Source: Candidatus Vogelbacteria bacterium (GTDB lineage: Bacteria; Patescibacteriota; Minisyncoccia; Phycocordibacterales; UBA12445). From it: a stretch of DNA of 42,487 nt. The translations under genes and the position numbers were made by a program. The notes beneath the pieces are model-generated. The model had not been told where the DNA came from, did not search any database, and was given only the letters and a program-made list of their open reading frames with translations. This document shows, one piece after another, positions 8,830-37,477 of the stretch (the first letter of the stretch is position 1; each line of letters begins with the position of its first letter). The stretch spans positions 1-42,487 of the forward strand of contig JACQCV010000021.1 of NCBI GenBank assembly GCA_016201465.1, written 5' to 3'.

Positions 8830-9984
8830 ATGGAATATGATTTCTTAATTATTGGTTCAAGTGGTATGCAGGGGAGGATTGTGGTGCGTGATCTTTTGGA
8901 ATCCGGATTCAAGGTTTATTGCGCAGACCTCTATCGTGATGGTTCAGAAAAGAATTTGGTTGAGCATCCTGGAACACCCTTTGAGTTTATTGATTTGAGG
9001 AAATTTGAAGAACTTAAAAGTTTCATAAAGAAAATCGTCGCCAGAGTGGTTATAAATTGCGCCGAAGGAGATTGGAATCATGACGTTTATCGTGTCTGCC
9101 TAGAGGAAAAACGTCATGTCATCGATTTGGGATCAGACATTCCGGTTACAAAAGCTCAGCTCGCTATGAGTAAAGCATTTAAAGACGCTGACCGTGTAGC
9201 GATAACTGGCTGTGGATCGACTCCGGGTATTAATAACGTAATGATGAAGCACGCTTCCCAATTCTTTAATAAGATCGATACGATTGAAATAGGTTTCGCT
9301 TGGGATTCGAATGTGAAAAAATTTGTCGTTCCGTTTTCGGTGGAGAGTATTATAGAAGAGTTGACAGATTTGGCGCCTGTTTATGAAGCTTCACAGTGGA
9401 TAGATAGGGTGCCGGCTGAGACCGAAGTGACTAGGGAGTTCCGGGAAATTGGTTCACAGAAATGCTATTTGGTGAGACATCCTGAAACATACACTTTCAC
9501 TCAAGATTATAAAGATTTTGAGCCTAAAAATATTAGGTTTTATGCTGGGTTTCCGGATCATTCTTTAGAGGTCTTGAGGAAGATTATTGAACTAGGCTTC
9601 GGAGCCAAGGGGCTATTGAATTTTGAAAAGACGGAAATAAGACCAATTGATGCTGTATCAAGAATCTTAACTAGATTACCAAAACCGGATAATTACACTG
9701 AGAAGGAAAATCTCTGGGTGGAGGTGTCTGGAAAGGGTAAGGATGATGGAATTAAGATTGTTCGCATGGAGTGTATTGTGATGACACTTCCAGGCTGGGG
9801 TGACGCTGGTTGTAATATTGATACTGGTTTGCCCGCTTCGATAATAGCACAAATGATCCTCGATGAGAGGATTTTCGCTCGCGGTAGCTTCGCGCCAGAT
9901 ATGGCTGTTCCGACTGATGAATTTTTTAAGGAATTGAAGAAAAAGGGAATGACTGTTTATCAGGACGGTAACTCAATAAATTAG
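8830..9984 (+). CDS. Saccharopine dehydrogenase family oxidoreductase
   Basis: Rossmann IIGSSGMQG, GCGSTPGINN, FSVESIIEE, HPET, TGLPASI. Confidence 0.88.
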   Translation: MEYDFLIIGSSGMQGRIVVRDLLESGFKVYCADLYRDGSEKNLVEHPGTPFEFIDLRKFEELKSFIKKIVARVVINCAEGDWNHDVYRVCLEEKRHVIDLGSDIPVTKAQLAMSKAFKDADRVAITGCGSTPGINNVMMKHASQFFNKIDTIEIGFAWDSNVKKFVVPFSVESIIEELTDLAPVYEASQWIDRVPAETEVTREFREIGSQKCYLVRHPETYTFTQDYKDFEPKNIRFYAGFPDHSLEVLRKIIELGFGAKGLLNFEKTEIRPIDAVSRILTRLPKPDNYTEKENLWVEVSGKGKDDGIKIVRMECIVMTLPGWGDAGCNIDTGLPASIIAQMILDERIFARGSFAPDMAVPTDEFFKELKKKGMTVYQDGNSIN

Positions 9985-32359: not shown

Positions 32360-32397
32360 GATTTGACTCACGGAAGATTTTACTGTATTTTTTGGCT

Positions 32398-33618
32398 GTG
32401 GATAAAAAGCGCAAGCGAAAAAATTATTTTCTTAAAAAACAGCGTGTCTTCGTTGGCATGTCTGGCGGCGTGGATAGTTCTGTTTCAGTTGCACTTTTAA
32501 AAGATCGGGGTTTTGACGTAACTGGGGTTTTTATAAAAACTTGGTCACCAGATTGGTTGCCTTGTACTTGGAGAGAGGAGAGGCGGGATGCGATGAGGGT
32601 TACGGCTAAACTTAAAATTCCACTTATCACTTTGGATTTGGAGAAAGAATATAAAGAGAGGGTGGTGGATTACATGATTACAGAATACCGATCCGGACGA
32701 GTTCCAAATCCAGATGTCATGTGTAACAAAGTTATCAAGTTTGGTGGCTTTTTTGACTACGCAATGAATCATGGCGCGGATTTTGTGGCGACAGGACATT
32801 ACGCCAGAGTCGTTAGGGCTTCTCCTCAGACAAACAATAGTTTGCCGTCTCCTGCGGGCGACAACTATCTGCACTCTCGACCTATCGGCCCCTTCGGAGA
32901 CCAAGCCCGAGCGGTCTGCGAGAGTTTGTCTTCAAAGAACCCTAACTCCTCTTGGCTTTGCACATCTGTTGATCGTGAAAAAGATCAGACATACTTTTTG
33001 TGGACTCTTACACAGAGAGAACTTTCAAGAACACTTTTTCCAATCGGCCACTTACAAAAGTCTGACGTCAGAAAGTTGGCGAGGAAATTTGATTTACCGA
33101 ATGCAGAGAAGAAAGATAGTCAGGGGCTCTGTTTTATGGGAAAGATCGATGTTAAGGAATTCTTGAAACATTATATTAAGGAAAAGACGGGGAGAGTTTT
33201 GAATGAGGATGGTGAAGTTATTGGTGTACATGAAGGCGCGGCATTCTACACTTTAGGCGAGAGACATGGTTTTAATATTATAAATAAGAGTACTAATGAC
33301 TTGCCGCATTATGTTATTCATAAAGACATTAAAAAGAATATTTTAGTTGTGTCGCAAAAAAGGGACGAAGGTGAAATCTTAAAGAAAGAAGTTATGGTCA
33401 AGAATGTTAACTGGAATCAAGGGTTAGAACCAAATCTAAAGAAAAAATTTAAGGCCAGAATTCGCTATAGGCAAGAGTTACAGGACTGCATGATCGGGGG
33501 GATTAAGGGTGGTCAATATAAAATAATTTTCGATAAAGGACAGGTGGCGCCGGCGCCTGGCCAATCGGTTGTTATTTATGAAGACGGTGTCTGTTTGGGT
33601 GGTGGGATTATTGTTTAG
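32398..33618 (+). CDS. mnmA: tRNA 2-thiouridylase with ~40-aa in-frame insertion
   Basis: SGGVDS, PNPDVMCN..IKFG, ATGHYA, KDQTYFL, KKDSQGLCF, APGQS. Probable start GTG 32398 after TTGACT-17-TATTTT. Confidence 0.96.
   Translation: MDKKRKRKNYFLKKQRVFVGMSGGVDSSVSVALLKDRGFDVTGVFIKTWSPDWLPCTWREERRDAMRVTAKLKIPLITLDLEKEYKERVVDYMITEYRSGRVPNPDVMCNKVIKFGGFFDYAMNHGADFVATGHYARVVRASPQTNNSLPSPAGDNYLHSRPIGPFGDQARAVCESLSSKNPNSSWLCTSVDREKDQTYFLWTLTQRELSRTLFPIGHLQKSDVRKLARKFDLPNAEKKDSQGLCFMGKIDVKEFLKHYIKEKTGRVLNEDGEVIGVHEGAAFYTLGERHGFNIINKSTNDLPHYVIHKDIKKNILVVSQKRDEGEILKKEVMVKNVNWNQGLEPNLKKKFKARIRYRQELQDCMIGGIKGGQYKIIFDKGQVAPAPGQSVVIYEDGVCLGGGIIV
32803..32956 (-). repeat. Multi-branched palindromic element inserted in-frame in mnmA
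   Basis: Nested inverted repeats GCCA/TGGC, GAG/CTC, GTTAGGG/CCCTAAC, TTCT/AGAA and AGACAAAC/GTTTGTCT enclose two hairpin arms. Confidence 0.75.
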
Positions 33619-33630
33619 GTGTTGACCATC

Positions 33631-33826
33631 TTTAAATCACGAAATACGTTAAATTTCCAAGTCCTCGGGTCGGAAAACAGAGTTGAAGTCTGAGTCTCAC
33701 CTTGCTCAACCCCAGGGAGGTTTTTAGCGTTCGGCATGGAAGCCTCACTAAAACTCCCGTAAAACTCAAGCAGTTGAGTTTTACCTCAACCAGAAATTGA
33801 AAATTTAACGTATTTCGTGATTTAAA
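33631..33826 (-). mobile_element. 196-bp MITE-like or structured RNA element with 26-bp perfect terminal inverted repeats
   Basis: 33631-33656 TTTAAATCACGAAATACGTTAAATTT is the exact reverse complement of 33801-33826. Three internal hairpins; no coding gene recognised. Confidence 0.65.
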
Positions 33827-33896
33827 CCACTTTCAATCTGATGTGAGTATATACAAATTACTTTGGGTTGGAGTACTCATTTGCTATACTAATTTT

Positions 33897-36206
33897 ATGG
33901 AATCACTAAACAGAAGGGCTAGCCGCAAAATTGAACTTGCACCAGATGAAGAGGTTGCTAAACATTCTATTGAACGTCTTGTTGATGAGATAAGCGAGCC
34001 GACTGACATAGCGGATGTGTCTTGTAAAAGAGAAAAGGTGAATCAAGAAGCTTTGGAGAAGGCTGGGGAAATTTTGAAACAGTTGGAGGACGAGGATATT
34101 GACCGCTTGAGTCCGGAGTTGCAGCAAATGCACTTGAAAACGGCCATTGAGGATATGGAACGAGAAATAAAGATCAAATATACTGGTAAGTGGGCGAACC
34201 TAAAGGATTTTTGGTCAGTCGCTTTTCGTAGAGATAAAGAGGAAGCTCTCAGCGATTTGCAGTACGCTAAGGATTCTATTCAAGTTCTGTCTGTCATGAA
34301 CAGGGCGCAAGCAGTATTGCCCGAGGGTGTCGAGGCGCCAGAAGTAACTGCTATTGAAAAGATAAAAAAAGAGGTGGATATTTTAGTAAAGTTGCGAGAG
34401 GAATTGGAGGAAAGAATAGATGGTAAAGTCAAATCGTTCTTTCGCACAAAACGGGAATCCAGTCTCGATTGGTTCTGGAAAAATAGCGCCCACCGTACTC
34501 TTCTCGAGAAGCAGTTACTCGCCACCTCTTCAGATGGAAAAAATTTGTTGAGTATGGAAGACTACTTTGTTTTTTTGGATATTGAACTTGAGGTTGTGCA
34601 GGAGAGAATTGCCACTTTGCATCGCCAGATGGAAGGACACATATCGGGGAAACTCATCGATCAAGACTTTTCCAAAATGTCTCAAGATGAAGTGGCGGGA
34701 ATTATTATAACTGAAAAAGATTTGGATCGAGAAAGAGTTATTGACTATGATTCTAGGGTTACAGGTAAAAATATAGCCTCTATGACCGCGCGGGAGTTAG
34801 AACTTGAAAGAAAATTGTTTGAAGAATCTAAGGAACGATTTTATGAAAAGAAAGTTCTAGAGTTTATAAAAAATAACAAAGAAAGAGTGCTAGAGCTTGC
34901 AGATACGTCGATTTTTTTAGAGGTACAAACACATCTGGCTGAAATCGATGAGAGTGATCCTAAGTTTGAATTTGATAACAAAAGTAGACAAGGTTTAAAC
35001 GAGACGCTGAAGATGCGTGTCATATTTAGCGCCCTTACAAGTTTGGGGGTGCGAAATCCGGTGACAACTCATGTCGGTGATAGTGAAGGCAAAATCATTT
35101 CAGTCCTCGCGGGTGTTCTGGAGTTAAAAATTGACGACGAAAATTTCCAAAATAAAGTTAGCAAAATTACAGAGCGGTGTTTGGGGCCGAAATGGGAGAA
35201 TGGTGAGGTTTTAAAGCTGCGAAATACTCCTGACTCGGACTCCGTTAAGATTTTTTCTGGTGGTGTTATGCAGCGTGTGCAATTTGATATTAACCACAAT
35301 CCTAGGCGATTGCAATATATTATGAATGACGGTATCACCAAAGTAATTGATGGTGTGTTCGATAAAGACTCTTGGTGGCCACATCCGCTGGGAGTTATAA
35401 TTATGGATTCTTACGGAAATTTATTATTGAATGGAAAAGATTTGATTTCTGATAGAGAGTTTTGGAGGAGCAGGATTGACGTGGAGAGTATACCAGCGGG
35501 TATTTTGTGGCATGACTTAAGTGATAATGGAGTTTTTTTGAATGGAAAAAAGGTGGGTGAACTACCAATGAGTGGAAGGGGACAACCACCCCAACATTTT
35601 TCTGGGTTAAGTAAAAATGGCGTAGTGATGCAGCGTCAGCTTGGTGGGGTTGGTGATGAACATAAAAAAGATGCCGGCATATATATTAATGGTGAACAGG
35701 TTTTAAATGATTACGGTTTCGCTTTTAATGTAAAGGCTGTTGTCTCCAAAGACTTTGTTTTTGCATGTTATAAAAAAGTGGACATGCACAGCGACAGTGC
35801 TAAGATATTATTAGATGGTAAATATCCAATTAAGATAATTTCAGATTCGCCAATAGTGGAGTGGTGGGTTCATCCGCGCGGGATCGTAGTGCTCAATAAG
35901 GATAAAGAATTTAGATTTTACAGTTTTGAGAAGGTTGCTCAGGAGGTTAGATTGAAAAATAAGTTTAATGATGTTTTGTCTGAAAAAGGATTCAAGGTGA
36001 TTCCAAATATGGAAGATATTAATGCTAACCGCTATGGAGAGAAGTTGTGCTGGTTTAATGAGAATAATTATGACAAGATTCGCGCTGCGGTGATTAGCGC
36101 AATTTACAATAAGGATGCGGAGGCATTAGATAATTATTTGAGAGAAGAAAAACAAAAGTACATTAGTATTGTTCAAAACGCGTTGGCTGAGTATCATGAT
36201 CATTAA
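33897..36206 (+). CDS. Large hypothetical protein (paralogue C): helical N-half, beta-repeat C-half
   Basis: ATG 33897 lies 6 nt after TGcTATACT. N-half aligns with 36221..37477. Repeats WWPHPLGVII/WWVHPRGIVV and LLLNGK/VFLNGK/IYINGE/ILLDGK. Confidence 0.8.
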   Translation: MESLNRRASRKIELAPDEEVAKHSIERLVDEISEPTDIADVSCKREKVNQEALEKAGEILKQLEDEDIDRLSPELQQMHLKTAIEDMEREIKIKYTGKWANLKDFWSVAFRRDKEEALSDLQYAKDSIQVLSVMNRAQAVLPEGVEAPEVTAIEKIKKEVDILVKLREELEERIDGKVKSFFRTKRESSLDWFWKNSAHRTLLEKQLLATSSDGKNLLSMEDYFVFLDIELEVVQERIATLHRQMEGHISGKLIDQDFSKMSQDEVAGIIITEKDLDRERVIDYDSRVTGKNIASMTARELELERKLFEESKERFYEKKVLEFIKNNKERVLELADTSIFLEVQTHLAEIDESDPKFEFDNKSRQGLNETLKMRVIFSALTSLGVRNPVTTHVGDSEGKIISVLAGVLELKIDDENFQNKVSKITERCLGPKWENGEVLKLRNTPDSDSVKIFSGGVMQRVQFDINHNPRRLQYIMNDGITKVIDGVFDKDSWWPHPLGVIIMDSYGNLLLNGKDLISDREFWRSRIDVESIPAGILWHDLSDNGVFLNGKKVGELPMSGRGQPPQHFSGLSKNGVVMQRQLGGVGDEHKKDAGIYINGEQVLNDYGFAFNVKAVVSKDFVFACYKKVDMHSDSAKILLDGKYPIKIISDSPIVEWWVHPRGIVVLNKDKEFRFYSFEKVAQEVRLKNKFNDVLSEKGFKVIPNMEDINANRYGEKLCWFNENNYDKIRAAVISAIYNKDAEALDNYLREEKQKYISIVQNALAEYHDH

Positions 36207-36220
36207 GTTTAAGGTGGCCA

Positions 36221-37477
36221 ATGAAAAGTGAAAAAATAAGATCACAAAAGAAAGAAGGTCAGGGTCAGGGTAGTATAGAGCAAACTCCGACCACTGCCGC
36301 TATACCAAACATAAATTTGCTGAGCGCTGAAGAGTTAAGTAGATACAAAGTTGAGGATTTAGCTGATGAAACGCGGCAGCTTACTGATTTTTCGCGTGTA
36401 GACGATATGGCGACAAAGGAAGATCTTGTGGCCGAGGCGGCTAAAATTAAAGAAGAGATTGAAAGAATGGATGAGCAGACAATGAGCGTCGACATGCTTC
36501 ACGCGAAACTTCTAGTGACCCTTAAAGACGCTAGAGGAGAGCTCGAGAATCTTCGTGGCCAATCCCGTTTTAAATTTATTTCGAAAACTAAGAAAGATTG
36601 GCGTAAATCAAAAGAAGAAGAGTTGGTTGCTGAGATAGCTGTCAATGAGACCGATCTTAAGGCTCTTGCATTAAAACACAAGCGACCATTACTCGATATT
36701 GAGAACCGTCCGCTTCGGTTTGATATGGAGCTTGAAGAAATTACAACTGAAATTGGTGCTTTAGAGGTGTTGCGAGACGAACTTAAAAAAGACACTAGAC
36801 TTGTGGAGGACGCGCCGAGATTTGTGAAAAAAGGTTTTGAAAAATTCGTGAACTTTTTGAGCAATTTTTTTGGTCAACCTTATGATAAGGTGATGTCACT
36901 TCATCAAATTGAATTGGATCTTATCCGAAAAAGAATAAGAGGGCTTGTTGCAAAACTTAACGCAGGGCACTTGAATAGTGAGGAAAGAACGGATGAGATA
37001 TCGAGTTTGGACGAGGGAGAGATGAGGTATAAAATTCGGGTTTTTGATTCGAATATAAAAAGTTTGCCGAAGCGAGTTGAACAAGAGATTGAAGAGGAGG
37101 CGAAGGATATATATTACAAAGAGCAGTTTGCTGAATTTATCAAAGAGCAAGAGGAAGCGATAAAACATACGGCTGGTAATATTGCCAGATTCATGTATAT
37201 ACCAATTTTTGCAGATCCAACCGATCCTAGTTATAACGACAGGCTTTTCCTCCAAATGGCTACGACTAATATGGAAGGTCTTAAGCATGAAATAAAGTAT
37301 AAAATGAGTGAGTCAATGAGAGGCGCATTTATTTGGAAGAATGAGAATTTTATTGATGAGAGTAACAGACGAGCGTTTAATCGTTTTTTGCGTAGCCAAA
37401 CGGTGATCAATATGGTAAACAGAATTATTGACGAGGTGATACAGAGTAGAGTAATGTATTTGACGAAGGGAAAATAA
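36221..37477 (+). CDS. Charged helical hypothetical protein (paralogue D)
   Basis: 418-aa ORF. VEDLADETRQLTDF, LRDEL, IELDLIRKRI and EEAKDIYY...EFIK align with C. Confidence 0.8.
   Translation: MKSEKIRSQKKEGQGQGSIEQTPTTAAIPNINLLSAEELSRYKVEDLADETRQLTDFSRVDDMATKEDLVAEAAKIKEEIERMDEQTMSVDMLHAKLLVTLKDARGELENLRGQSRFKFISKTKKDWRKSKEEELVAEIAVNETDLKALALKHKRPLLDIENRPLRFDMELEEITTEIGALEVLRDELKKDTRLVEDAPRFVKKGFEKFVNFLSNFFGQPYDKVMSLHQIELDLIRKRIRGLVAKLNAGHLNSEERTDEISSLDEGEMRYKIRVFDSNIKSLPKRVEQEIEEEAKDIYYKEQFAEFIKEQEEAIKHTAGNIARFMYIPIFADPTDPSYNDRLFLQMATTNMEGLKHEIKYKMSESMRGAFIWKNENFIDESNRRAFNRFLRSQTVINMVNRIIDEVIQSRVMYLTKGK

Follow-up and report, generated by a model that had tools for sequence, protein, structure and literature searches.

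Insertion sequences of the IS982 family are described as having inverted repeats of 11-32 bp, direct repeats of 2-10 bp and a DDE transposase of the PF13612 type, and, in the portion of the family review that concerns registered members, 57 of 69 begin with AC and five with CC (PMC7335449). The word 'MITE' has no occurrence in that review (PMC7335449). MITECca01/02 of Cardinium cOegib are reported, in the relevant part of the genome description, to derive from ISCca4, a member of this family (PMC9769881). Target duplications are described, in the section that treats them, as waning with age (PMC10969869). The present work concerns a locus in a 42,487-nucleotide stretch of DNA from a Candidatus Vogelbacteria bacterium, an ultra-small member of the Patescibacteria (the stretch being the window), which is contig C18 of G000, a 755-kb genome that is 74% complete.

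The element behind mnmA and its nested parts

The element starts 12 nt past the stop codon of mnmA, its core lying on the opposite strand to that gene. It is intergenic and contains no transposase gene; each of the six frames is interrupted by stops, and neither strand has an open frame. The features of the locus are:

32392..33618, plus strand: mnmA, which contains an in-frame insertion (about 32811-32960) unrelated to the element
33630..33827, minus strand: whole element, 198 bp, a MITE shell of IS982 type in which repeats A and B are nested
33630..33647, plus strand: IS982-like terminal inverted repeat, mnmA side
33631..33656, plus strand: left arm of the perfect 26-bp repeat, made up of the terminal repeat and the AT-rich arm of family A
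33661..33678, minus strand: 3' half of the family A core, GTTTTCCGACCCGAGGAC on the minus strand
33678..33714, minus strand: third arm, across the B/A junction; its 5' strand is B, its 3' strand junction bases and A loop
33693..33787, minus strand: module B, 95 nt, nested in the A loop; 77-79% identical to the stand-alone G002 and G003 copies
33715..33758, minus strand: B hairpin 2, 13+3 pairs
33759..33784, minus strand: B hairpin 1, 11-bp stem with a CTGC tetraloop; three pairs changed on both sides relative to G002 and G003
33784..33794, minus strand: 5' half of the family A core, TCTGGTTGAGG; GAGG is common to the start of B
33801..33826, minus strand: right arm of the perfect 26-bp repeat
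33810..33827, minus strand: IS982-like terminal inverted repeat, far side; its outermost base differs from the partner end

A preliminary description of this DNA had noted perfect 26-bp inverted repeats ending in TTTAAA, and these are present, the perfect repeat being exactly 26 bp (33631-33656/33801-33826) with TTTAAA at both ends. Among all perfect inverted repeats that a census of G000 found within 600 nt, only a 71-bp fold-back at a contig end (C20) is longer. Homology places the limits of the element at 33630 and 33827, one base beyond the repeat, where the outer pair is mismatched. The minus-strand fold (-85.8 kcal/mol, z -10.2, unmatched by any of 200 shuffles) reproduces the stem of about 38 bp and the three arms that had been drawn for it, the outer stem having 38 pairs and closing all three arms; the plus-strand fold is weaker (-71.1). 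The element also folds as single-stranded DNA (z -9.4), and its structure is therefore no proof of RNA.

The origin of so regular a palindrome in assembly error or in chance deserves consideration, given the contig-end fold-back elsewhere in the genome and the fact that no single Logan contig spans the whole element plus both flanks. G-T pairs, however, break up the arms, many genomes have homologues, and Logan contigs match both junctions: in run X1 two overlapping pieces together cover the element with zero differences, and contigs of run X2 cover it from 33700 onward. The lack of differences argues against an assembly artefact, a possibility that the preliminary description had raised and to which we attach almost no credence, but the two runs belong to one study that is possibly the source sample of the assembly.

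Judged by alignment, the element is chimeric and can be taken apart into IS982-like ends, a hairpin repeat (A) and a module (B) in the loop of A. Further copies, which the preliminary description had proposed to seek, are many in other genomes, and BLAST of G000 yielded a second one after trmD (C27:5487-5606), which is 85% identical and B-less, matches both outer thirds of the element and has a short loop. Congeners carry short B-less copies and, separately, the middle part alone. The alignment resolves the element into a shell, A, and the 95-nt B in its loop, with GAGG..AACTC common to both at the junction. Arms 1 and 2 of the cloverleaf are module B, the third arm (33678..33714) is present in the window copy only, and the cloverleaf is the sum of nested hairpins. 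No A+B composite beyond the window copy was found in metagenome_contigs, in Logan contigs or in a B covariance search of 141 genomes.

In five relatives (G001-G005) mnmA is followed directly by alaS, without the element, and the element after mnmA is absent from all 10 family relatives examined. In G000, mnmA and alaS are separated by the element and two orphan ORFs of 787 and 418 aa (33630-37477), neither of which has a Pfam or NCBIfam match. The two paralogue pairs said to surround the element are indeed paralogous, if weakly: a 714-aa and a 561-aa ORF share 28% over 289 aa, and the ORF at 33897 and the 418-aa ORF share 21% over 358 aa (E 1e-5). A copy of A between groES and groEL is missing in G000 and present in G002, there with a 7-bp near-duplication, and the trmD-rpoB interval of G001 and G005 is without A. 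Empty orthologous sites thus exist for the mnmA-alaS, groES-groEL and trmD-rpoB intervals, at genus level and not as base-exact alleles.

The in-frame insertion within mnmA had been considered a possible structural relative of the element. Both fold better on the minus strand (z -3.4 for the insertion), but nothing else is shared; the local alignment score of 14 is equalled or exceeded by 289 of 300 shuffles, which leaves a common family without sequence support. The insertion (32811-32960) is single-copy in G000. The same loop of mnmA holds different insertions in G002, G004, G005 and G007, and is therefore a hot spot.

Terminal repeats, target duplications and parent insertion sequences

A search with PF13612 in genomes rich in A revealed a 1002-bp IS982-like element in G787 whose ends are those of the MITE, and with its transposase as a query, 11 of 401 order genomes gave matches. 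Eight elements (the one in G787 and seven in six other genomes) are 935-1072 bp long and have the GAATTACGAAA-type repeat; exact 6-7-bp duplications flank five of the eight, two lie at contig ends and one is without. More distant transposase matches have other ends. A second PF13612 match in G787 (L367) has no matching ends and was set aside.

Every transposase scanned matches NF033520 (IS982) better than any other family. That of L377 alone exceeds the IS982 cut-off (182.6 versus 130 bits), whereas of the three that were scanned at full or nearly full length, two do not reach it (86.6 and 103.6 versus 130 bits); L368 is above the cut-off for PF13612. The first bases of this Paceibacteria group are CTTT, CCTT, CCCT, CTGT or GTTT, with ACCC in one of the eight. 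Among the eight parents, an AC start at both ends is confined to L377, and CC occurs in L373 and at one end of L374. The window copy begins CT/GT and departs from the IS982 consensus start AC (or CC) and from AC(N)6T(N)5TT. Searches of G000 (74% complete), G001, G002, G003, G004 and G005 turned up no IS982 transposase.

Compared with 16 IS ends, the mnmA-side end of the element (33630..33647) is identical at 10-15 of 18 positions, or 13-15 of 18 against the 14 CTTT-type ends, and the far end (33810..33827) at 10-14 of 18, such that 3-8 of 18 positions differ. When the genome was scored with a matrix built from IS ends alone, 33630 ranked fifth of 1.5 million sites, four other single sites being higher, and 33630-33827 ranked first of 13 opposed pairs (27.3 versus 23.9 bits), a likeness for which the two arms of the element are not independent evidence.

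In the high-copy A subfamily the ends lie at a constant distance of 4 nt beyond GAATTAC. Of the 89 elements with IS982-type ends, 52 are flanked by exact direct repeats of 6-8 bp, where shuffling gave a mean of 1.3 and at most 5; this count describes the high-copy subfamily and not the lineage of the window copy, and with at most one mismatch it rises to 68 of 89 (shuffled 7.8). These duplications are mostly of 6 and 7 bp and differ in sequence from copy to copy. A test with adaptive boundaries gave 62 of 79 elements, a weaker signal than that with fixed ends. The 2-bp TA duplication of IS630/Tc1 type, familiar from ERIC, RUP and Correia elements, was ruled out (19 two-base matches versus 21 shuffled).

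Since the limits 33630-33827 are set by the same register as in the high-copy subfamily, TTTAAA falls inside the terminal repeat, at positions 2-7. Other copies in Logan contigs start exactly at base 33630 with different flanks, and other A copies carry variants of TTTAAA. The real duplications lie outside the motif, and the earlier suggestion that TTTAAA is itself a target duplication is not supported. The window copy has no target duplication, its flanks ..TGACCAT and CACTTTC.. not repeating one another; among A copies of the close lineage, one of six (L010) has a plausible duplication outside its ends, of 7 bp with one mismatch. With multiple copies, a patchy presence among congeners, IS982-like ends and 6-8-bp target duplications at relatives, the MITE assignment offered in the preliminary description is supported.

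The right flank of the element (33827-33870) holds a terminal-repeat-like CTTTCAATC. This stretch also resembles stretches upstream of C34 ORFs (E 0.005-0.02), a likeness that possibly reflects a shared promoter motif. IS982-type shells surround other cores as well, at L350, L351 and L355 (G371 and G406), one of them with GTCATTCCCG-type hairpins.

Repeat A and module B at other loci

The core of family A is TCTGGTTGAG ... CRACCCGAGGAC, and the family occurs in records labelled Patescibacteria or Paceibacteria. At least 128 matches to the core are found in genome_contigs; among the 80 matches listed, 61 carry Patescibacteria-type labels, seven are unlabelled and 12 come from other phyla, mostly without flanking stems. 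Core copies number 23-35 in four of five genomes checked, against 0 for reversed-pattern controls, and 36 in G787; 14 of 53 genomes of one family contain the core. A stricter pattern matches in only six of 401 order genomes, one of them by chance, and the family is therefore patchy. Among the congeners, A-type copies number nine in G002 and one each in G004 and G001, with none in G003 or G005. The core pattern was fixed in the search, which means that its invariance is partly built in; the duplex filter was lenient (128 of 134 passed, GC-rich chance matches among them), and later counts leave out a hand-made list of non-Patescibacteria loci.

The end motif of IS982 type is missing from 55 of 117 A copies, and A therefore also spreads or persists without it. 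Where enough flank was available (83 copies), all 45 with IS982-type ends are intergenic, and the 38 without are split between 19 intergenic and 19 in-frame copies, all 19 of the latter antisense; nine of the 19 have an open frame on the other strand too, and kin are not independent. In-gene copies without IS982 ends include L063, L076, L086, L091, L106, L112-L114, L117 and L126, and the host ORFs, named from their sequence, include polA, ligA, leuS, ileS, pheS/T, uvrD and tgt. Read on the core strand, mismatches in the outer stem are more often G-U than A-C (97 versus 59), and the same holds in copies without IS ends (55 versus 25).

These properties are what a repeat of RPE or REP type with its own single-strand route would lead one to expect, the IS982 likeness of the outer arms then being a relic or chance. 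A core with unrelated arms in nearly half of the copies, in-gene copies that are uniformly antisense and free of IS982-type ends, and the G-U bias of the outer stem speak for such a route, as do the lack of a duplication at the window copy and the presence of two Y1_Tnp genes in the genome. On the other side, the matrix built from IS ends alone selects both ends of the window copy, the Y1_Tnp genes sit between different short hairpins, and arms of intermediate sequence connect the window copy to the subfamily that has duplications: L177 carries such an arm, and L081 the AAATCAC end variant seen in the window copy. As an account of the element we consider this route improbable; it may describe an earlier history of A and leave the best explanation, an IS982-type MITE, undisplaced.

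The two Y1_Tnp genes of G000 (C11:1532-1804 and C37:40704-40946) each lie between paired short hairpins in a RAYT/REP-like arrangement. Neither locus contains a match to A or B, the flanking hairpins are different ones, and the element does not qualify as a RAYT-associated REP/REPIN. No similarity to either A or B was detected in other long-stem hairpin elements of G000 (C30:13599-13746, C39:845-918, C30:766-832 and one on C33 upstream of prfA). Six nearly identical copies (L383, L386, L387, L390 and L393 in G002, L385 in G001) represent a sister type of A, set apart by its inner hairpin, CTGGCCGAG..ATCCGAGGAC. A long-insert search for A in metagenome_contigs gave 14 matches, none with B; three (L306, L309 and L311, all the same sequence) are genuine A elements whose 82-nt core is another one, and the other 11 are chance-like. 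In viral contigs a loose A pattern gave a weak stem in three of 118 matches, and stricter patterns gave one, one and two matches, all chance-like.

Module B stands alone in two congeners, G002 and G003. Of 27 pairs, 96% are maintained in its three close copies (G000, G002 and G003), and in five both bases have changed, a result equalled in 3 of 500 shuffles and derived from three sequences only. Searches for close copies returned little: by pattern, the window alone plus six chance matches in 351 class genomes; by BLAST of 301 order genomes, G000, G002 and one 25-nt partial match. A covariance model run over 141 genomes added six weak matches in four genomes (E 2e-5 to 5e-3). B and its distant relatives consist of a CTGC-tetraloop hairpin and a 3' GAGCRAAGCGARAC module.

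Five of the six distant matches, together with the G003 copy, are located at tRNA genes (G003 L015:2489-2744; G122 L404:741-1475 and L408:1440-1706; G131 L405; G125 L406). The tRNA-linked modules mostly follow a duplicated 5' tRNA piece (Ser, Glu, Val or Gln) and precede the intact copy, and in G122 two B-related modules are inserted into degenerate tRNA-Glu copies, in the region of the D-loop. No paper on tRNA-linked modules of this type was found in the open-access listings searched. In G000 a B-like CTGC hairpin lies directly 3' of tRNA-Gln (C23, about 9000-9070), and a tRNA-like gene with an inserted GC-rich palindrome lies inside a 22-bp inverted repeat (C16:2308-2429).

The inner stem of A covaries, with 109 two-sided changes in 43 diverse copies against 34 in shuffled sets (0 of 500). 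Together with the two-sided changes in B and the very stable, strand-biased fold, this covariation would suit a functional structured ncRNA transcribed from the minus strand, from TATACT and antisense to mnmA. The composite is, however, single-copy, its locus is empty in every family relative examined, the parts A and B are scattered over unrelated loci, with no fixed orientation relative to genes, and the fold forms in single-stranded DNA too. No Rfam family matches the element, the A copies or the B copies above the gathering score. The TATACT pointed out earlier on the minus strand (33846-33851) is present, but a promoter scan made no call there and gave one other weak site against 1.1 expected. 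The sequencing runs listed for this DNA include none of RNA. A stand-alone ncRNA with its own promoter, also put forward in the preliminary description, is further at odds with the five relatives in which mnmA and alaS adjoin. The element is probably not a dedicated RNA gene, and we judge a functional ncRNA at this locus to be very improbable.

Origin of the locus and comparison with known systems

Beside the observed IS982-like ends, family-level duplications, parent elements, separable A and B and patchy presence among congeners stands an interpretation that we hold with considerable confidence, namely that the element is an ageing, non-autonomous MITE of the IS982 family with A as its interior, into which a tRNA-associated B has recombined. 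An IS982-type DDE transposase would have acted in trans on the terminal repeats to insert the element after mnmA. The IS ends would earlier have captured hairpin repeat A, giving an interior unrelated to the transposase gene, as in a 'type II' MITE, and B would have entered the A loop later, the shared GAGG..AACTC serving as the site of a recombination or template-switching event. The window copy appears to be old and is probably immobile now, in view of its drifted ends, the lack of a duplication and the lack of any transposase found in the assembly. A putative effect on the host, such as terminating or processing RNA that reads through from mnmA, would be incidental.

A more far-reaching picture would be a layered economy of selfish hairpins in Patescibacteria, in which A and B are mobile in their own right and IS982 shells capture, swap and amplify them, putative proteins read A and B as single strands, and the locus is a tRNA-targeting element inside a repeat inside a transposon shell. 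It would accommodate a bulged, strand-biased A, the occurrence of B in broken tRNA-gene duplicates and the dozens of copies per genome; taken as a whole it is speculative, and we doubt it more than we believe it.

For annotation, the value of the analysis is that a striking cloverleaf need not be filed as a new RNA gene. It links a widespread hairpin repeat of Patescibacteria to a named transposase family and to a measured target duplication of 6-7 bp, and mobilisation is therefore directly testable. It also shows that streamlined genomes of 0.4-0.9 Mb can hold dozens of such copies, often at contig ends. The tRNA-linked B modules and the in-gene A copies without IS982 ends are the less ordinary leads. 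No report of MITEs in Patescibacteria was found in the open-access listings searched.

The Paceibacteria IS group agrees with published accounts of the IS982 family in its size of about 1 kb and in its duplications, but mostly not in its AC start. From the published descriptions of comparable repeats, Coxiella QMITE2 resembles the element in being 150-190 bp long with terminal repeats of 23-29 bp and a long stem-loop (PMC5896051, PMC10969869). Its duplications are 7-11 bp, variable and unique to each copy, it lies mostly at the 3' ends of genes, and its internal REP-like hairpin is also found without the ends, like A (PMC5896051, PMC10969869). The likeness is one of descriptions; the passages concerned make no mention of IS982, and the internal REP is a target of IS1111. 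Rickettsia RPE, as far as described there, is inserted in frame in genes (PMC10969869), like the 19 A copies without IS982 ends, which lie in housekeeping genes; the window copy differs in being intergenic with stops in six frames, and this comparison, too, is by description.

The closest counterpart is MITECca01/02, which, in the account given of them, are likewise short and gene-less with IS982-type inverted repeats, at about 240 bp versus 198 bp here (PMC9769881). High copy numbers are possible in both, with 169 there (PMC9769881) and dozens in G407. They belong to a different phylum and their parent IS is intact in the same genome, whereas none was found in G000, and the interior of the present element consists of nested hairpin repeats that also exist alone. 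IS982-derived MITEs are already published from Cardinium (PMC9769881), and the element is likely to be an ordinary kind of selfish DNA.
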